Origin: Escherichia coli
GTDB lineage: Bacteria; Pseudomonadota; Gammaproteobacteria; Enterobacterales; Enterobacteriaceae
Assembly: GCF_044647545.1 (NCBI RefSeq)
Contig: NZ_CP172818.1
DNA length: 64,000 nucleotides
Strand: one strand, 5' to 3'
This document shows, one piece after another, positions 26,631-62,459 of this stretch. The notes below the pieces were generated by a model. That model made no database searches. It was given only the letters and a program-made list of their open reading frames with translations, and was not told the origin of the DNA. Position 1 is the first letter of the stretch, and the number at the start of each line of letters is the position of its first letter. The position numbers and the translations under genes were made by a program.

Positions 26631-26744
26631 GGGGGCTCTGTTGGTTCTCCCGCAACGCTACTCTGTTTACCAGGTCAGGTCCGGAAGGAAGCAGCCAAGG
26701 CAGATGACGCGTGTGCCGGGATGTAGCTGGCAGGGCCCCCACCC
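26631..26744 (+). ncRNA. ffs: 4.5S RNA (signal recognition particle RNA)
   Basis: 114 nt GGGGGCTCTGTTGGTTCTCCCGCAACGC...GGCAGGGCCCCCACCC matches the E. coli SRP RNA as I recall it; lies in the atl-ybaA intergenic region. Confidence 0.93.
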
Positions 26745-42102: not shown

Positions 42103-44034
42103 ATGAGTTATCAGGTCTTAGCCCGAAAATGGCGCCCACAAACCTTTGCTGACGTCGTCGGCCAGGAACATGTGCTGACCGCACTGGCGAACGGCTTGTC
42201 GTTAGGGCGTATTCATCATGCTTATCTTTTTTCCGGTACCCGTGGCGTCGGAAAAACCTCTATCGCCCGACTGCTGGCGAAGGGGCTAAACTGCGAAACC
42301 GGCATTACCGCGACGCCGTGCGGCGTGTGCGATAACTGTCGTGAAATCGAGCAGGGGCGCTTTGTCGATCTGATTGAAATCGACGCCGCCTCGCGTACCA
42401 AAGTCGAAGATACCCGCGACCTGCTGGATAACGTCCAGTACGCTCCGGCGCGTGGTCGTTTCAAAGTTTATCTCATCGACGAAGTGCATATGCTGTCGCG
42501 TCACAGCTTTAACGCACTGTTAAAAACCCTTGAAGAGCCGCCAGAGCACGTTAAGTTTTTGCTGGCGACGACCGATCCACAGAAATTGCCGGTGACGATT
42601 TTGTCACGCTGTTTGCAATTTCATCTCAAGGCGCTGGATGTCGAGCAAATTCGCCATCAGCTTGAGCACATCCTCAACGAAGAACATATCGCTCACGAGC
42701 CGCGGGCGTTGCAATTACTGGCGCGCGCCGCTGAAGGCAGCCTGCGAGATGCCTTAAGTCTGACCGACCAGGCGATTGCCAGCGGTGACGGCCAGGTTTC
42801 AACCCAGGCGGTCAGTGCGATGCTGGGTACGCTTGACGACGATCAGGCGCTGTCGCTGGTTGAAGCGATGGTCGAGGCCAACGGCGAGCGCGTAATGGCG
42901 CTGATTAATGAAGCCGCTGCCCGTGGTATCGAGTGGGAAGCGTTGCTGGTGGAAATGCTCGGCCTGTTGCATCGTATTGCGATGGTACAACTTTCGCCTG
43001 CTGCACTTGGCAACGACATGGCCGCCATCGAGCTGCGGATGCGTGAACTGGCGCGCACCATACCGCCGACGGATATTCAGCTTTACTATCAGACGCTGTT
43101 GATTGGTCGCAAAGAATTACCGTATGCGCCGGACCGCCGTATGGGCGTTGAGATGACGCTTCTGCGCGCGCTGGCGTTCCATCCACGTATGCCGCTGCCT
43201 GAGCCAGAAGTGCCACGCCAGTCCTTTGCGCCCGTCGCGCCAACGGCAGTAATGACGCCAACCCAGGTGCCGCCGCAACCGCAATCAGCGCCGCAGCAGG
43301 CACCGACTGTACCGCTCCCGGAAACCACCAGCCAGGTGCTGGCGGCGCGCAAGCAGTTGCAGCGCGTGCAGGGAGCAACCAAAGCAAAAAAGAGTGAACC
43401 GGCAGCCGCTACCCGCGCGCGGCCGGTGAATAACGCTGCGCTGGAAAGACTGGCTTCGGTCACCGATCGCGTTCAGGCGCGCCCGGTGCCATCGGCGCTG
43501 GAAAAAGCGCCAGCCAAAAAAGAAGCGTATCGCTGGAAGGCGACCACTCCAGTGATGCAGCAAAAAGAAGTGGTCGCCACGCCGAAGGCGCTGAAAAAAG
43601 CGCTGGAACATGAAAAAACGCCGGAACTGGCGGCGAAGCTGGCGGCAGAAGCCATTGAGCGCGACCCGTGGGCGGCTCAGGTGAGTCAACTTTCGCTACC
43701 AAAACTGGTCGAACAGGTGGCGTTAAATGCCTGGAAAGAGGAGAGCGACAACGCAGTATGTCTGCATTTGCGCTCCTCTCAGCGGCATTTGAACAACCGC
43801 GGCGCACAGCAAAAACTGGCTGAAGCGTTGAGCACGTTAAAAGGTTCAACGGTTGAACTGACTATCGTTGAAGATGATAATCCCGCGGTGCGTACGCCGC
43901 TGGAATGGCGTCAGGCGATATACGAAGAAAAACTTGCGCAGGCGCGCGAGTCCATTATTGCGGATAATAATATTCAGACCCTGCGTCGATTCTTCGATGC
44001 GGAGCTGGATGAAGAAAGTATCCGCCCCATTTGA
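42103..44034 (+). CDS. dnaX: DNA polymerase III subunits tau (full length) and gamma (via -1 frameshift)
   Basis: 643 aa; AAA+ clamp-loader motifs (GTRGVGKTS); the slippery heptamer inside the ORF is listed separately. Confidence 0.97.
   Translation: MSYQVLARKWRPQTFADVVGQEHVLTALANGLSLGRIHHAYLFSGTRGVGKTSIARLLAKGLNCETGITATPCGVCDNCREIEQGRFVDLIEIDAASRTKVEDTRDLLDNVQYAPARGRFKVYLIDEVHMLSRHSFNALLKTLEEPPEHVKFLLATTDPQKLPVTILSRCLQFHLKALDVEQIRHQLEHILNEEHIAHEPRALQLLARAAEGSLRDALSLTDQAIASGDGQVSTQAVSAMLGTLDDDQALSLVEAMVEANGERVMALINEAAARGIEWEALLVEMLGLLHRIAMVQLSPAALGNDMAAIELRMRELARTIPPTDIQLYYQTLLIGRKELPYAPDRRMGVEMTLLRALAFHPRMPLPEPEVPRQSFAPVAPTAVMTPTQVPPQPQSAPQQAPTVPLPETTSQVLAARKQLQRVQGATKAKKSEPAAATRARPVNNAALERLASVTDRVQARPVPSALEKAPAKKEAYRWKATTPVMQQKEVVATPKALKKALEHEKTPELAAKLAAEAIERDPWAAQVSQLSLPKLVEQVALNAWKEESDNAVCLHLRSSQRHLNNRGAQQKLAEALSTLKGSTVELTIVEDDNPAVRTPLEWRQAIYEEKLAQARESIIADNNIQTLRRFFDAELDEESIRPI
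43386..43397 (+). promoter_or_regulatory. dnaX programmed -1 ribosomal frameshift site (A AAA AAG) with -1 frame stop
   Basis: A_AAA_AAG at 43386-43392 in the correct register of the dnaX frame (codons GCA AAA AAG); -1 frame reads AAA AAA GAG TGA; GC-rich structured region immediately downstream. Confidence 0.85.
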
Positions 44035-57051: not shown

Positions 57052-57135
57052 ACACCGTCGCTTAAAGTGACGGCATAATAATAAAAAAATGAAATTCCTC
57101 TTTGACGGGCCAATAGCGATATTGGCCATTTTTTT
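57052..57135 (+). ncRNA. chiX: ChiX small regulatory RNA (Hfq-dependent; MicM/SroB)
   Basis: 84 nt ACACCGTCGCTTAAAGTGACGGCATAATAATAAAAAAATGAAATTCCTCTTTGACGGGCCAATAGCGATATTGGCCATTTTTTT, 5' hairpin plus intrinsic terminator; matches ChiX as I recall it; in the ybaK-ybaP gap. Confidence 0.88.
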
Positions 57136-57928: not shown

Positions 57929-58186
57929 ACGACCTCCCTTTGTGAAATATCATGCTAGCGCGCGGGGAGGGATGGCGCAAATGGAGTTGTTGTCGCACTT
58001 GTGCACAGTGCTTGTGTGCATTACAATAATTAAACAATGGACAAGGAGATGAGAATGGAATGGCTCAAAAGAATAATATAAGGAGTTTTCGTGATCCTGC
58101 TGGCTGATTTTTTTTTCCATTCAACCCCACATCAAAAAATCCCTCTAAAATCCATACCACTTATCACAAAAGTGGACATCATTAAT

Positions 58187-58346
58187 CCCCCCCCTTCTCT
58201 CCGTTTTCCCCCCCCCCCGAAACGAAAAAAAAAGTTTTGGAAAAAAAAAGAAATTTCCCCAAAAAAAAAAAAAAAAAAAAAAAAAAATAAAAAAGGGAAA
58301 AAAAAAAAGGAAAAAAAATTTTTTTAAAAAAAAAAAAAAAAAAAAA
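58187..58346. repeat. Homopolymer-rich low-complexity block (C8, C11, A9, A9, A27, A11, A8, T7, A21) upstream of ybaQ
   Basis: Directly visible in the sequence; composition unlike any other part of the window. See findings. Confidence 0.95.
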
Positions 58347-58379: not shown

Positions 58380-58751
58380 ATGAAACAGGCAACAAGAAAA
58401 CCGACGACACCCGGAGATATTCTTCTCTATGAATATCTGGAACCGCTCGATTTGAAAATCAATGAGTTAGCAGAGTTACTGCATGTTCATCGTAATAGCG
58501 TCAGTGCACTGATCAATAATAATCGTAAACTCACCACTGAAATGGCATTCCGTCTGGCGAAAGTTTTTGATACCACAGTCGATTTTTGGCTAAACCTCCA
58601 GGCGGCAGTTGATCTTTGGGAAGTTGAAAACAACATGCGTACCCAGGAAGAATTGGGACGGATTGAAACAGTGGCTGAATATTTGGCACGCCGTGAAGAG
58701 CGTGCAAAAAAGGTCGCGTATATGCGCCACCCTAAAGCAGTGCATCCGTAA
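58380..58751 (+). CDS. ybaQ: XRE-family HTH protein, HigA-like putative antitoxin
   Basis: 123 aa ORF with central HTH (LKINELAELLHVHRNSVSALINN); recognised as YbaQ; start taken from the track, and my recollection of the annotated length (113 aa) is not reconciled with this ORF. Confidence 0.85.
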   Translation: MKQATRKPTTPGDILLYEYLEPLDLKINELAELLHVHRNSVSALINNNRKLTTEMAFRLAKVFDTTVDFWLNLQAAVDLWEVENNMRTQEELGRIETVAEYLARREERAKKVAYMRHPKAVHP

Positions 58752-58759
58752 TGATGTAC

Positions 58760-61264
58760 TTATTCCTTCGGTTTAAATCGCAGCAATCGGTTGGCGTTAC
58801 TCACTACGGTAATCGACGAGAGCGCCATTGCCGCTCCGGCAACCACCGGGTTAAGCAGCGTACCGGTGAACGGCCACAAAATACCGGCGGCGACCGGAAT
58901 ACCAATGCTGTTGTAGATAAACGCACCGAGCAGGTTCTGCTTCATATTGCGCAGCGTTGCGCGGGAAATCGCGAGCGCATCTGCAACACCCATCAGGCTA
59001 TGGCGCATCAGGGTAATCGCCGCGGTTTCAATGGCAACATCACTGCCGCCACCCATCGCAATACCGACATCCGCCTGAGCCAGCGCTGGCGCGTCGTTAA
59101 TGCCGTCGCCCACCATTGCCACCTGACGTCCTTCACTTTGCAGACGTTTGATCGCTTCGGCTTTACCGTCCGGTAGCACCCCGGCTATCACCTCATCAAT
59201 CCCTGCTTCTTTGGCGATCGCATTGGCGGTGGTTGGGTTATCCCCGGTTAGCATCACCAGACGATATCCCGCTTTATGCAGGCGTTGCAGCGCCGCCACG
59301 CTATCACTACGCAACGGATCGCGTACAGCCAGCAGGGCTACCGCTTTCCCGTCAACCGCCAGCAGCACAGGCGTTGCCCCTTGCGATGCCTGAGCTGAAA
59401 TATCTGCCTCAATCGCTTTAGTATCAACTTGCTGGTCATTTAACAGCGCCTGATTACCCAGCAATAACGCATGACCTTCAGCTTCACCGCTCACGCCCAG
59501 CCCGCGCAATGTGCGGAAACCGTTGACCTGCGGCAGCTGCATATCACCTGCTTTATCGAGGATCGCTCGTGCCAGCGGATGGCTGGAACCTTGCTCCAGT
59601 GCCGCCGCCAGACGCAATGCCTGCGCTTCATCAACATCAGCAAACGTTTTCACTGCGACAACCTGCGGCTTCCCTTCGGTCAGCGTCCCGGTTTTATCGA
59701 ACACGACGGTGTCGAGCGTACTGGCGCGTTGCAGCGCGTCAGCGTCCCGCACCAGCACGCCAAACTCAGCCGCCCGCCCGACGCCCGAAATAATCGACAT
59801 CGGCGTCGCCAGTCCCAGCGCACACGGACAGGCAATAATCAGCACCGTGGTGGCAATCACCAGGGTATAGACAATTTGCGGTGCCGGACCAAAGAAATAC
59901 CAGATTGCCGCACTGACAAGCGCAATAACCACTACTACCGGCACAAATACGGCTGAGATTTTATCCGCCAGTTGACCGATTTCTGGCTTGCTGCTCTGGG
60001 CCTGTCGCACCATGCGAATGATCCGTGACAGCGTAGTATGGCTGCCGACCGCACTGGCGCGAAACAGCACACTGCCGTCCTGTACCACTGTCCCGGCATG
60101 GACGCTATCGCCTTCGCCTTTTTGCTGCGGGATTGGTTCGCCCGTCAGCATCGCTTCATCCAGCCACGCTTCGCCCTGGGTAATTTCACCATCTACCGGC
60201 ACCCGATCACCCGTCGTCAGGCGCAGCAACATACCTGGCTGAACATCTGCCAGCGGCACGTTTTTTTCACCTTCGTTGGTGACCAGGCGCGCCGTCGGTG
60301 GGGTTAAATCGAGTAATTTCTCCAGCGCCTTAGAAGAACGCTGACGTGCGCGCGCTTCCAGCATATGACCGAGATTAATCAGACCGATAATCATCGCACT
60401 GGCTTCATAGTAAAGATGTCGCGCTTCCATCGGGAACCACTGCGGCCACAGGTTGACGCTCATTGAATAGAGCCACGCCACGCCCGTACCCAGCGCCACC
60501 AGCGTATCCATCGTCGCTGCACCGTTCAGCAGGCTTTTCCATGCGCTGCGGTAAAAATGGCCGCCGGCGAAAACCATTACCGCCAGGGTTATCAGGCCGA
60601 TAACCAACCACAGGCTGCGGTTGTCGGCGGTGACCATCATGTTATCGCCGATCATCCCCCAGACCATCACCGGGATACCCACCGCCAGTGCGACAATCGC
60701 CTGCCAGCGGAAGCGCTTCATCGTAGCGACGGCGGTTTCTTGCTGGCGCTCGCGGCGTTTAGCGTCATCTTCAATCGCTTCCGCGCCGTAGCCCGCTTTT
60801 TCCACCGCCTGCACTAAATCTTGTGGGGAGGCACTGCCCATCACCAGCGCAGTACGCTCCGCCAGGTTTACCCGTGCCTGAGTGACGCCCGGTACGCTTT
60901 GCAACGCATTTTGTACGCGGGTGACACAGCTGGCGCAGCTCATGCCGCTCAGCAGCAACTGCTGGCTGTCATCGTCATCGGCGGTCGCTGCCGGAAGCGC
61001 CTCAGAAACCGCTGTCAGTGCTTCCGACGGGATTGATGACTCCGCCAGCGGTTTAGCCTTTGGGTGGCTTACAGATGCGTCATAACCCGCTTGTTTGATG
61101 GTTTCGATCAGCTGTTCTGCACTGGCAGTCCCGGTAACGTGCGCTTCAGTGACAGACACATCCGCCTGCTCAACATCCGGGCGCTGTTCGAGACTTTCTT
61201 TCACGCGTTTAACGCAGTGACCGCAGGACAGGCCGTCCAGGGTCAGGTCGATAGTTTGTGACAT
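58760..61264 (-). CDS. copA: Cu(I)-exporting P1B-type ATPase
   Basis: 834 aa; two N-terminal CxxC metal-binding domains (GLSCGHC, GMSCASC), CPC in TM6, DKTGT phosphorylation motif. Confidence 0.97.
61057..61063 (-). promoter_or_regulatory. Candidate copA programmed -1 frameshift heptamer (C CCA AAG) yielding the CopA(Z) chaperone
   Basis: Minus-strand CCCAAAG at codons His-Pro-Lys (HPKAKPL), about codon 69-70, directly after the first metal-binding domain; placement follows the published CopA(Z) frameshift as I recall it. Confidence 0.6.
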
Positions 61265-61303
61265 AAAACACTCCTTTTAAGACAGTTTTGACTGGCTGTG
61301 ATA

Positions 61304-61334
61304 AAGGTTAAACCTTCCAGCAAGGGGAAGGTCA
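61304..61334 (-). promoter_or_regulatory. copA promoter with CueR box (MerR-type, 19-bp spacer)
   Basis: Minus strand reads TTGACC-N19-TAACCT; the spacer contains the dyad CCTTCC-N7-GGAAGG (61312-61330). Confidence 0.85.
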
Positions 61335-61526
61335 AGAAATTAATAAACCAGGCGGGTAAAAGTACGTAAAGATTAAAAAATCGGCTCGATTTGCATCAGG
61401 ATTAGACATTTATCTCTTTGTTTTCCTGTAGTTAAGTTGCGGGTGCTAAGTTAAATCAGGATGCCTGAAAATTGGCACCGGGGTGAGGAATTACCTCCCG
61501 CATCTATAAAAAGGAGTTAACAAAAG

Positions 61527-62459
61527 ATGTTAGATGCAAACAAATTACAGCAGGCAGTGGATCAGGCTTACACCCAATTTCACTCACTTAACGGCGGACA
61601 AAATGCCGACTACATTCCCTTTCTGGCGAATGTACCTGGTCAACTGGCAGCAGTGGCTATTGTGACCTGCGATGGCAACATCTATCGCGCGGGTGATAGT
61701 GATTACCGCTTTGCGCTGGAATCCATCTCGAAAGTCTGTACGTTAGCCCTTGCGTTAGAAGATGTCGGCCCGCAGGCGGTACAGGACAAAATTGGCGCTG
61801 ACCCGACCGGATTGCCCTTTAACTCAGTTATCGCCTTAGAGTTGCATGGCGGCAAACCGCTGTCGCCACTGGTAAATGCTGGCGCTATTGCCACCACCAG
61901 CCTGATTAACGCTGAAAATACTGAACAACGCTGGCAGCGAATTTTACATATCCAACAACAACTGGCTGGTGAGCAGGTAGCGCTCTCTGACGAAGTCAAC
62001 CAGTCGGAACAAACAACCAACTTCCATAACCGGGCCATTGCCTGGCTGCTGTACTCCGCCGGATATCTCTATTGTGATGCAATGGAAGCCTGTGACGTGT
62101 ACACCCGTCAGTGCTCCACGCTCATCAATACTGTTGAACTGGCAACGCTTGGCGCGACGCTGGCGGCGGGTGGTGTGAATCCGCTGACGCATAAACGCGT
62201 TCTTCAGGCCGACAACGTGCCGTACATTCTGGCTGAAATGATGATGGAAGGGCTGTATGGTCGCTCCGGTGACTGGGCGTATCGCGTTGGTTTACCGGGC
62301 AAAAGCGGTGTAGGTGGCGGTATTCTGGCGGTCGTCCCTGGCGTGATGGGAATTGCCGCGTTCTCACCACCGCTGGACGAAGAAGGCAACAGTGTTCGCG
62401 GTCAAAAAATGGTGGCATCGGTCGCTAATCAACTCGGCTATAACGTGTTTAAGGGCTGA
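61527..62459 (+). CDS. glsA: Glutaminase 1
   Basis: 310 aa serine-dependent glutaminase ORF recognised as GlsA/YbaS. Confidence 0.95.
   Translation: MLDANKLQQAVDQAYTQFHSLNGGQNADYIPFLANVPGQLAAVAIVTCDGNIYRAGDSDYRFALESISKVCTLALALEDVGPQAVQDKIGADPTGLPFNSVIALELHGGKPLSPLVNAGAIATTSLINAENTEQRWQRILHIQQQLAGEQVALSDEVNQSEQTTNFHNRAIAWLLYSAGYLYCDAMEACDVYTRQCSTLINTVELATLGATLAAGGVNPLTHKRVLQADNVPYILAEMMMEGLYGRSGDWAYRVGLPGKSGVGGGILAVVPGVMGIAAFSPPLDEEGNSVRGQKMVASVANQLGYNVFKG

Follow-up and report, generated by a model that had tools for sequence, protein, structure and literature searches.

Comparative Evidence for the copA −1 Programmed Ribosomal Frameshift Site in an Escherichia coli Chromosome

Results

The copA Locus and Its Promoter

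The window analyzed in this work, a stretch of 64,000 nucleotides from an E. coli chromosome, carries the copA gene together with the features collected in Table 1. The copA product scored 1747 bits against the NCBIfam equivalog NF007952, whose cutoff is 1316, and contains the Pfam domains HMA (two copies), E1-E2_ATPase and Hydrolase. The gene is annotated in 5422 of 5426 complete E. coli genomes, and the order ybaP, ybaQ, copA, glsA, and ybaT is common to the window and to E. coli K-12, with an identity between the two of 97.3% over 5.3 kb. The promoter upstream of copA contains the dyad ACCTTCC-N7-GGAAGGT, which, from what is established about the promoter of E. coli copA, we take to be the CueR operator.

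Table 1. Coordinates of copA, its predicted recoding signal and its products in the window (stem 1 and stem 2 arms as predicted RNA).
Feature	Coordinates	Strand	Basis
copA promoter, MerR/CueR type (TTGACC, 19-nt spacer, TAACCT)	61305..61335	(-)	Context; drives both products
copA zero-frame CDS, Cu(I)-exporting P1B-type ATPase, 834 aa	58760..61264	(-)	ORF list and translation
CopA(Z) reading frame, 70 aa, MSQ...SHPKG	61053..61264	(-)	Translations
HMA domain 1, residues 8-62	61079..61243	(-)	Pfam PF00403, E = 8.4e-14, profile positions 3-62 of 62
CxxC motif C14-G-H-C17, metal-binding domain 1	61214..61225	(-)	Translation
Suppressed synonymous variation, codons 66-92, delimiting the recoding signal	60989..61069	(-)	Orthologue comparison
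Slippery heptamer C_CCA_AAG	61058..61064	(-)	Last base of His67, Pro68 and Lys69
−1 frame stop TAA, one codon past the slip	61053..61055	(-)	Translation
Spacer GCUAAA, 6 nt, heptamer to stem 1	61052..61057	(-)	Pseudoknot model
Stem 1 5′ arm CCGCUG, CDS nt 214-219	61046..61051	(-)	Pseudoknot model
Stem 2 5′ arm GUCGGAAGC, CDS nt 237-245	61020..61028	(-)	Pseudoknot model and RNAalifold
Stem 1 3′ arm CAGCGG, CDS nt 251-256, inside the stem 2 loop	61009..61014	(-)	Pseudoknot model
Stem 2 3′ arm GCUUCCGGC, CDS nt 267-275	60990..60998	(-)	Pseudoknot model and RNAalifold

The Slippery Heptamer and the −1 Stop

The sequence CCCAAAG is present as a single copy in copA (minus strand, 61064-61058) and is in phase with the copA frame (X_XXY_YYZ), its first C being the third base of the His67 codon (CAC, 61066-61064), followed by CCA for Pro68 and AAG for Lys69. 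An earlier note on this DNA, made from the letters alone, had rightly placed the heptamer on His-Pro-Lys, while its numbering (about codon 69-70) was one or two codons off, the codons being 67-69. The statement that the heptamer directly follows the first metal-binding domain agrees with the end of the Pfam HMA match at residue 62 and with the last predicted beta strand, which ends at residue 65. In the −1 frame the site reads CCC AAA GGC TAA; a nearby −1 stop, whose lack had been named as the observation that would speak against the site, was looked for and is thus present one codon past the slip.

The bare heptamer is not enriched in the window, where six copies were found versus 8.1 expected, and a −1 stop within two codons occurs at about 12% of copA codon positions. 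The copA gene has two in-frame X_XXY_YYZ heptamers, and only the CCCAAAG site is followed by an immediate −1 stop. The site therefore goes beyond chance because of this combination and its conservation, which are in excess, and not because of the bare heptamer.

Identity with the K-12 Site

The cassette covering CDS nt 113-360 was base-for-base equal to that of E. coli K-12, and the site is intact, as the earlier note had stated. The heptamer, the −1 stop, the spacer and the pseudoknot region are identical in both, and the two frameshift products differ at the V38/I38 polymorphism alone. Over CDS nt 1-365 we found four substitutions (nt 75, 84, 112, and 361), all of them outside the signal, and the copA 5′ untranslated region differs from that of K-12 by a 1-nt indel. 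In the RefSeq record of K-12, copA has a further CDS in two pieces, 212 nt long and annotated as ‘soluble Cu(+) chaperone’ (YP_009518752.1), to which the CopA(Z) frame of the window corresponds. The −1 frameshift that yields CopA(Z) from K-12 copA has reportedly been described by Meydan et al. in 2017 (Mol Cell 65:207) and by Drees et al. in the same year (Mol Microbiol 106:635).

Frameshifting in E. coli copA is described as efficient, with ribosome-profiling support and independent confirmation (PMC9548414), and its product as a protein of 70 amino acids versus 834 for the full-length one (PMC5009743). The slippery sequence, a pseudoknot and the nascent chain have been named as elements of the event (PMC7558416), the pseudoknot and two stem variants of it have been the subjects of single-molecule frameshift assays (PMC6182138), and copA is counted with dnaX and prfB among the well-characterised cases (PMC10861913). 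What we say here about efficient frameshifting, about stimulation by the pseudoknot and the nascent chain, and about copper protection is taken from that literature, which deals with the identical sequence.

Conservation of the Recoding Signal

We compared copA in 88 orthologues, most of them from Enterobacteriaceae, with one from Erwiniaceae. One of the six patterns used in the orthologue search was the peptide VSHPKAKP, which biases the sample to the amino-acid motif and not to codon choice. A search with the full-length CopA protein listed relatives that were all at least 89% identical, with no distant orthologues among them; a scan of a genome collection was also carried out, and of 218 relatives the best 80 were used.

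The heptamer was retained in all 88 orthologues, as CCCAAAG in 85 and as CCCAAAA in three, and its first C was constant even though the codon that it closes specifies H, R, S, D or F. A TAA or TGA was found at the identical −1 position, one codon after the heptamer, in 88 of 88. The two zero-frame codons that overlap this stop changed their amino acids without losing it, codon 70 being always NCT (A, S, T or P) and codon 71 always AAN or GAN (K, N, D or E). Synonymous diversity over codons 66-92 was 0.086 compared to 0.42 in the remainder of the first 500 codons, which makes this the lowest 27-codon stretch of that region, the next lowest non-overlapping one having a value of 0.313. Sixteen of the 22 codons with zero diversity fall in codons 66-91. 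Within the species, a 93-nt cassette showed an identity of 99% or more in 5337 of 5422 genomes. This comparative pattern agrees with the selection expected of a −1 frameshift site.

The CopA(Z) Product

The CopA(Z) frame runs through codons 1-69 of the zero frame (61264-61058) and continues in the −1 frame with GGC (61058-61056) and the stop TAA (61055-61053), G61058 being read twice. Its product corresponds exactly to one HMA (CxxC) domain plus a C-terminal glycine. Residues C14, G15, H16, and C17 were unchanged across 25 orthologues, and the CxxC motif is positioned in the loop ahead of helix 1. An AF2 model of CopA(Z) had a pLDDT of 92.6, with the elements E3-10, H15-26, E31-36, E40-45, H49-58, and E62-65, and Foldseek searches with this model retrieved MerP, CopZ, Atox1 and ATPase metal-binding domains at TM values of 0.8-0.89.

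None of the NCBIfam CopZ models reached its curated cutoff with CopA(Z) (NF047957, 60.4 versus 85 bits; NF033794, 39.4 versus 95; NF033795, 38.1 versus 91), and the best NCBIfam match of CopA(Z) was the N-terminus of the CopA equivalog. By descent CopA(Z) is an ATPase metal-binding domain, CopZ-like in its reported working and outside the CopZ families. According to reviews it binds Cu(I) and delivers it to the ATPase (PMC6771820, PMC9470648), and it serves as Cu(I) chaperone for CopA (PMC6771820, PMC7558416, PMC9470648).

A database search with the N-terminal 110 amino acids yielded short fragments only, and those of 70 amino acids derive mostly from assemblies with upstream indels. In these indel-bearing entries the frame ends at the same −1 stop (...PPKG), and they are not annotated as CopA(Z).

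A Predicted Pseudoknot Downstream of the Heptamer

Bases that are invariant among the orthologues are predicted to form a two-stem H-type pseudoknot which starts 6 nt past the heptamer and ends at position 60990. The exact stems (Table 1), which we infer from our own derivation, may differ in detail from those of the published pseudoknot. The interval of the earlier note, 61040-61264, contains the frameshift site and falls short of this stimulatory RNA, which reaches about 50 nt below 61040.

Stem 1 is predicted to have 6 bp (up to 8) and stem 2 to have 9 bp, their duplex energies being −11.8 and −14.4 kcal/mol. In Escherichia and Salmonella, stem 1 could be extended at its 5′ side by two A-U pairs, and on direct reading the sequence of this E. 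coli has three extra A-U pairs; the 8-bp form of stem 1, AACCGCUG/CAGCGGUU, was found in the window and in one orthologue (L086). Across 81 close orthologues, the predicted stems CCGCUG/CAGCGG and GUCGGAAGC/GCUUCCGGC were paired in 100% of cells, versus 20-54% when the partners were slid. The CCGCUG arm was unchanged in all 81 and 13 of the 15 pairs were constant, with no double changes; the other two pairs, both in stem 2, vary one-sidedly and stay paired (G-C/G-U and U-G/C-G/U-A). The sole compensatory change was detected in a single sequence (L084), which has CAACGG opposite CCGUUG and so replaces C-G by U-A at pair 217-253, and the U.G intermediate of this pair was present in another (L083), with the arm CCGUUG. 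The predicted architecture was also kept in seven more distant sequences, including those of Salmonella, Buttiauxella, Cronobacter, and Mixta. Variable alignment columns sit in the pseudoknot loops, and RNAalifold independently predicted stem 2 as a 9-bp hairpin.

Since ViennaRNA cannot model pseudoknots, the structure was scored by a simple scan for stem pairs, with synonymous recodings and other positions within the gene as controls. Of 1000 synonymous recodings, 39 reached this score, as did eight of 742 other in-frame copA positions. The earlier note had proposed folding the RNA downstream of the heptamer for a pseudoknot or hairpin: the former emerged from the scan, whereas nested minimum-free-energy folding gave energies indistinguishable from those of shuffled sequences (z = −0.73 over 83 nt and −1.33 over 161 nt). 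In E. coli a nested alternative fold is at least as stable as the pseudoknot, and its extra helices are unconserved. The helices GUCAUC (225-230)/GAUGAC (292-297) and CUGGC/GCCAG of the minimum-free-energy fold were rejected as conserved elements, because changes on either arm were never compensated. An Rfam search over 60700-61600 gave nothing at E <= 1, the copA element having no Rfam family.

In loop 1 (61045-61029) several bases were kept despite amino-acid change, namely UCA at codon 76, the third-position A of codon 77, the third-position C of codon 78, and the CCG that follows, and this conservation exceeds what a two-stem model explains. Because these bases are fixed though the amino acids change, an extra conserved feature is suggested. 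Non-Escherichia enterics have a GGAG 8 nt upstream of the heptamer, which is absent in Escherichia and which, by analogy with dnaX, may act as an internal Shine-Dalgarno stimulator. That the stimulatory RNA comprises more than the two stems, for instance a major-groove triplex at stem 2 or an interaction with the ribosome, or that the enteric GGAG is a stimulator, seems to us rather unlikely. If true, each of these would amount to a refinement of a mechanism that is already known, and it may have been published before.

Discussion

The locus analyzed here is almost certainly the E. coli copA −1 programmed ribosomal frameshift site. The proposal of the earlier note that a frameshift in copA releases the first domain as CopA(Z) was borne out by the identity with K-12, the K-12 annotation, the published work and the comparative pattern. 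It is a rediscovery, already published and already annotated, with nothing new about copA.

The following course of events would connect the elements described above. During translation of copA, tRNA-Pro would occupy the P site at CCA (codon 68) and tRNA-Lys the A site at AAG (codon 69) when the ribosome meets the two-stem H-type pseudoknot predicted 6 nt downstream. In a fraction of the ribosomes both tRNAs would slip one base back and re-pair with CCC and AAA, and the next codons, GGC and TAA, would then lead to termination after 70 residues. The CopA(Z) released in this way, consisting of the first HMA/CxxC domain and a glycine, would act as a soluble Cu(I) chaperone, while ribosomes that do not slip would synthesize the full 834-residue Cu(I) export ATPase. 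As a single, presumably CueR-controlled mRNA would serve for both, chaperone and pump would be made together.

A shorter copA transcript ending near the frameshift region might contribute to the small protein or even account for it, a possibility which is a complement to frameshifting more than a strict rival and which we hold to be conceivable, if on the unlikely side. It is named in the title of the 2017 study by Drees et al., which is said to mention ‘differential transcript formation’ beside frameshifting. On the copA strand, however, no intrinsic-terminator-like site was found from 61060 to 60950, and the only two terminator-like matches within 60700-61600 lie in the 5′ untranslated region and on the opposite strand. 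Furthermore, a truncated mRNA with no stop codon would be subjected to rescue and tagging by tmRNA and would not give a defined protein of 70 amino acids, and the strictly conserved heptamer and −1 stop fit frameshifting and not the shortening of a transcript.

Slippage of the polymerase instead of the ribosome appears very improbable. If RNA polymerase added one A within the AAA, the mRNA CAC CCA AAA GGC UAA would encode the identical peptide with no slip of the ribosome, and a database entry of 70 amino acids (P0069, ...GHPKN) illustrates that a one-base insertion in the A run yields such a product. Efficient polymerase slippage is nevertheless known from runs far longer than three A, and the run in copA is far below the lengths that support it. 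Slippage in the A run would need neither the first C of the heptamer, which tandem tRNA re-pairing needs and which all 88 orthologues keep, nor an RNA structure 6 nt downstream, where synonymous constraint is yet strong. The literature also calls the copA event ribosomal (PMC9548414, PMC5009743, PMC7558416, PMC10861913).

The idea that the heptamer and the −1 stop are coincidental, with the conservation stemming from an antisense gene (ORF 60882-61085, plus strand) or from an RNA structure with another role, is effectively refuted. The unremarkable frequencies of the bare heptamer and of nearby −1 stops given above would allow it, and so would the antisense frame, which stays open from nt 196 to 282 both in the window and in 76 of the 80 orthologues compared. 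The constraint, however, is limited to CDS nt 196-276, whereas the antisense ORF extends over nt 180-383 and takes in the highly variable, indel-bearing codons 93-99. Moreover, the NCT and [AG]AN codons that preserve the −1 stop amid amino-acid change have no antisense explanation, and experimental work exists on the identical K-12 sequence (PMC9548414, PMC5009743, PMC7558416). The antisense ORF was accordingly rejected as a source of the constraint, given the bounds of the signal and the NCT/[AG]AN pattern.

Programmed −1 frameshifting at copA resembles that of dnaX (tau/gamma, RF00382), another chromosomal, non-mobile case. There, too, the A-site codon is AAG for Lys, a near-immediate −1 stop makes the frameshift product a shortened form of the complete protein, and a downstream RNA structure stimulates the event. 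The DnaX element RF00382 was matched by Rfam in the same window, at 43367-43431. The dnaX signal combines A_AAA_AAG with a simple hairpin on its downstream side and an internal Shine-Dalgarno sequence on its upstream side; in contrast, copA has C_CCA_AAG and a predicted pseudoknot, and the upstream GGAG is absent in Escherichia. As for the product, CopA(Z) was similar in Foldseek comparisons (TM 0.77-0.83) to chaperones of the CopZ/Atx1 type, such as E. hirae CopZ (1cpz), the B. subtilis (2qif) and Streptomyces (6ff2) proteins and human Atox1. Unlike a free-standing CopZ, it does not have a gene of its own, being the N-terminal domain of the pump freed by recoding. By analogy with copA, a −1 frameshift releasing the N-terminal metal-binding domains of human ATP7B, the orthologue of copA, was reportedly proposed in the same 2017 paper as the bacterial event. 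The ATP7B claim, which neither ribosome profiling nor conservation supports, was later traced to an artefact of the reporter (PMC9548414), whereas the bacterial copA site has strong synonymous-site conservation.

Only copA, dnaX and prfB are considered well-characterised programmed frameshifts in non-mobile genes of E. coli (PMC10861913). The copA site serves as a positive control, being a true recoding site that was located from raw sequence. Because the comparative signal is strong enough, its signature, in which the heptamer never varies, the −1 stop persists amid amino-acid change and synonymous variation collapses within sharp bounds, is usable as a template to screen other genes. The copA site also illustrates how a single gene, from one copper-responsive promoter, can supply a membrane pump and a soluble metal chaperone in a fixed ratio.

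The copA frameshift site

The window is E. coli chromosomal DNA and the site lies in copA: a 521-nt query around it matched 5422 of 5426 complete E. coli genomes at no less than 95% identity under that annotation, and the full-length protein passed the NCBIfam CopA equivalog model (1747 bits; cutoff 1316) and contained two HMA domains, an E1-E2_ATPase domain and a HAD hydrolase domain (Pfam). The earlier note had placed a candidate −1 programmed frameshift site for CopA(Z) at a CCCAAAG heptamer around codon 69-70. The heptamer is present, intact and in frame, at codons 67-69: its first C is the third base of His67 (CAC), followed by CCA (Pro68) and AAG (Lys69). The −1 frame reads CCC AAA GGC TAA, with the stop one codon after the slip; slippage on CCA-AAG would add one glycine, and the product predicted by translation has 70 aa (MSQ...SHPKG).

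The proposal was further supported by comparison with E. coli K-12, whose signal is identical. Within CDS nt 1-365 the two sequences differ only at nt 75, 84, 112 (V38 in the window, I38 in K-12) and 361, with no difference from nt 113 to 360. K-12 RefSeq carries a second, two-piece copA CDS (511168-511379; YP_009518752.1), annotated as 'soluble Cu(+) chaperone'. The primary report of copA frameshifting is that of Meydan et al. in 2017 (Mol Cell 65:207). According to Loughran et al. (PMC9548414), the E. coli frameshift is well supported by ribosome profiling, with independent confirmation credited to Drees et al. 2017, whereas the parallel claim for human ATP7B has been refuted. The product was given as 70 aa versus 834 aa in the zero frame by Atkins et al. 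(PMC5009743), single-molecule assays on the copA pseudoknot and two stem variants were performed by Wu et al. (PMC6182138), and copA, dnaX and prfB are listed together as the well-characterised E. coli cases (PMC10861913 among others). The DnaX ribosomal frameshifting element (Rfam RF00382) was matched at full length at 43367-43431 (+; 96.8 bits), so that both classical chromosomal E. coli −1 sites lie within this one 64-kb window.

Six copies of CCCAAAG were found across the window versus 8.1 expected; the bare heptamer is not beyond chance, and the unusual part is how the elements combine and are conserved. A −1 stop falls within two codons at about 12% of copA codon positions, and of the two in-frame X_XXY_YYZ heptamers in the gene only this one is followed immediately by such a stop.

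Features of the copA region and RNA genes in the window (CDS numbering from the copA start)
Feature	CDS nt	Window	Strand	Basis or remark
copA promoter, MerR-type (TTGACC, 19-nt spacer, TAACCT)		61335-61305	minus	with a perfect 7-bp dyad
copA CDS, zero frame, 834 aa		58760-61264	minus	ORF list and translation
Slippery heptamer CCCAAAG		61064-61058	minus	register X_XXY_YYZ
Stem 1, 5' arm CCGCUG	214-219	61051-61046	minus	pairs with CAGCGG
Loop 1		61029-61045	minus	conserved bases despite amino-acid variation
Stem 2, 5' arm GUCGGAAGC	237-245	61028-61020	minus	pairs with GCUUCCGGC
Stem 1, 3' arm CAGCGG	251-256	61014-61009	minus	pairs with CCGCUG
Stem 2, 3' arm GCUUCCGGC	267-275	60998-60990	minus	pairs with GUCGGAAGC
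sraA		8892-8987	minus	Rfam gathering-level match
Bacterial small SRP (4.5S) RNA		26639-26735	+	Rfam gathering-level match
sroB (ChiX sRNA)		57052-57135	+	Rfam gathering-level match; adjoins ybaP as in K-12

Conservation of the slip site and −1 stop

A one-genome-per-species scan provided the best 80 of 218 relatives, all Enterobacteriaceae copA loci with 79-98% identity over the N-terminal 190 aa; the six search peptides included VSHPKAKP, which biases the sample to the amino-acid motif, not to codon choice. Seven sequences were added (Salmonella, Buttiauxella, Cronobacter, Mixta gaviniae of the Erwiniaceae, and three more distant). The heptamer was present in 88 of 88 sequences (C_CCA_AAG in 85, C_CCA_AAA in 3), its first C being constant while the codon it ends encodes His, Arg, Ser, Asp or Phe. 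Exactly one codon past the slip, every one of the 88 carries a −1-frame TAA or TGA, zero-frame codon 70 being NCT throughout (Ala, Ser, Thr, Pro) and codon 71 AAN or GAN (Lys, Asn, Asp, Glu). The residues thus change but the overlapping stop persists, which is the pattern left by selection acting on the −1 frame. Synonymous diversity was 0.086 in codons 66-92 versus 0.42 in the rest of the first 500 codons, the lowest of their 27-codon stretches (next non-overlapping, 0.313); 22 codons have no synonymous diversity at all, 16 of them in codons 66-91. A 93-nt cassette was at least 99% identical in 5337 of 5422 E. coli genomes.

Codons 63-64 are GCG GAG in most non-Escherichia orthologues (loci L005-L080, locus positions about 1187-1192; the Glu64 codon is GAG in 67 of 67, never GAA), which puts a GGAG 8 nt before the slippery sequence and recalls the internal Shine-Dalgarno stimulator of dnaX. 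In Escherichia, the window among them, these codons are GCA UCU. Six database 70-aa proteins ending in ...PPKG (P0073, P0078, P0082, P0086, P0093, P0116; Salmonella, Klebsiella-like and other assemblies) are upstream-indel copA genes reading into the conserved −1 stop, not annotated CopA(Z). P0069 (Pluralibacter, ...GHPKN), the same as the predicted frameshift product, probably originates from an extra A in an A5 run.

Predicted downstream pseudoknot

The invariant bases form four blocks predicted to pair as an H-type pseudoknot, 6 nt after the heptamer. All stem cells were paired in an alignment of 81 sequences, and sliding the partners by 1-3 columns reduced this to 20-54%; 13 of 15 pairs showed no variation, and the other two vary on one side only with pairing kept (G-C/G-U and U-G/C-G/U-A). 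Variable columns fall in the loops, and RNAalifold independently predicted stem 2. The more distant sequences share the architecture and its distance from the heptamer; two of them have stem 1 as CCGUUG/CAGCGG with a U.G pair (L083) and CCGUUG/CAACGG with a U-A pair (L084), so that the series starting from C-G contains a single compensatory change and the intermediate leading to it. Stem 1 of Escherichia and Salmonella can be extended by A-U pairs toward the stop codon.

Of 1000 synonymous recodings that preserve the peptide, 39 reached the simple pseudoknot score of the window sequence (44), as did 8 of 742 other in-frame copA positions; taken by itself, the thermodynamic signal is therefore modest. 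When the downstream RNA was folded as a nested MFE structure, it was no better than shuffles (z = −0.73), and support for the pseudoknot comes mainly from conservation. None of the Rfam families covers the copA element, and the published model may deviate from our stems in its details. Loop 1 keeps particular bases where the encoded residues vary: of 77 Ser codons at position 76, 76 are UCA; codon 77 ends in A in 80 of 81 sequences; and codon 78, which encodes any of five amino acids, ends in C in all 81. The two stems do not explain this pattern. A candidate long-range helix from loop 1 to nt 292-297 showed no compensatory changes and was discarded as unsupported.

The 2017 paper of Drees et al. 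names a short copA transcript in its title; such a transcript may contribute to chaperone output, but it leaves the conserved heptamer and stop unexplained; no terminator-like sites were found near the frameshift region on the copA strand. Transcriptional slippage in the AAA run, instead of a ribosomal slip, would yield the identical peptide, yet it accounts neither for the conserved first C nor for the conserved structure 6 nt downstream. An antisense ORF (60882-61085, +), although open in most orthologues, is a poor source of the constraint, which is limited to nt 196-276 when the ORF extends over nt 180-383; codons 93-99, also inside the ORF, are highly variable, with indels.

Promoter and flanking region

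The promoter contains a perfect 7-bp dyad (ACCTTCC-N7-GGAAGGT), and we take this MerR-type element to be the CueR-controlled copA promoter. A standard sigma-70 scan, which permits spacers of 16-18 nt, did not detect it. The copA 5' UTR has a 1-nt indel relative to K-12, about 13 nt before the ATG.

In the ybaP-ybaQ interval, at 58095-58346 (+), the closest E. coli relatives carry an annotated toxin gene of the RelE/ParE family (HigB-like). This stretch has long homopolymer runs (C8-C11, A21, A27, T7), ceases to align (88.8% identity across 872 nt) with strains whose copA 5' region is 100% identical to the window, and its called ORFs had no Pfam match; it looks like a low-quality or corrupted assembly stretch, not biology. 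Compared with NZ_CP033850.1, a 19-nt deletion at 58720/58721 (+) takes out the stop codon of ybaQ (HigA-family antitoxin), extending ORF 58380-58751 to 123 aa from 113 and ending it 8 nt from the copA stop. K-12 has 278 extra nt between ybaQ and copA and lacks the toxin gene.

The 70-aa product

The product comprises a single, complete HMA domain (Pfam, E = 8.4e-14, covering positions 3-62 of the 62 in the profile), its CxxC motif (C14-G-H-C17) being invariant among the 25 orthologues compared, and the slip would occur three residues past the completed fold. Foldseek matched it (TM 0.77-0.89) to MerP, PacS, metal-binding domains of ATP7A/B, CopZ (1cpz, 2qif, 6ff2) and Atox1. It resembles CopZ in fold, yet it scored below every cutoff of the curated NCBIfam CopZ models, its best NCBIfam match being the N-terminus of the CopA equivalog; its descent is that of a pump domain. 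The CopZ-like chaperone role is assigned by the literature. The site is thus the copA/CopA(Z) programmed −1 frameshift already described, intact and reference-identical, with nothing new, and it is a useful positive control for a scan based on sequence only.
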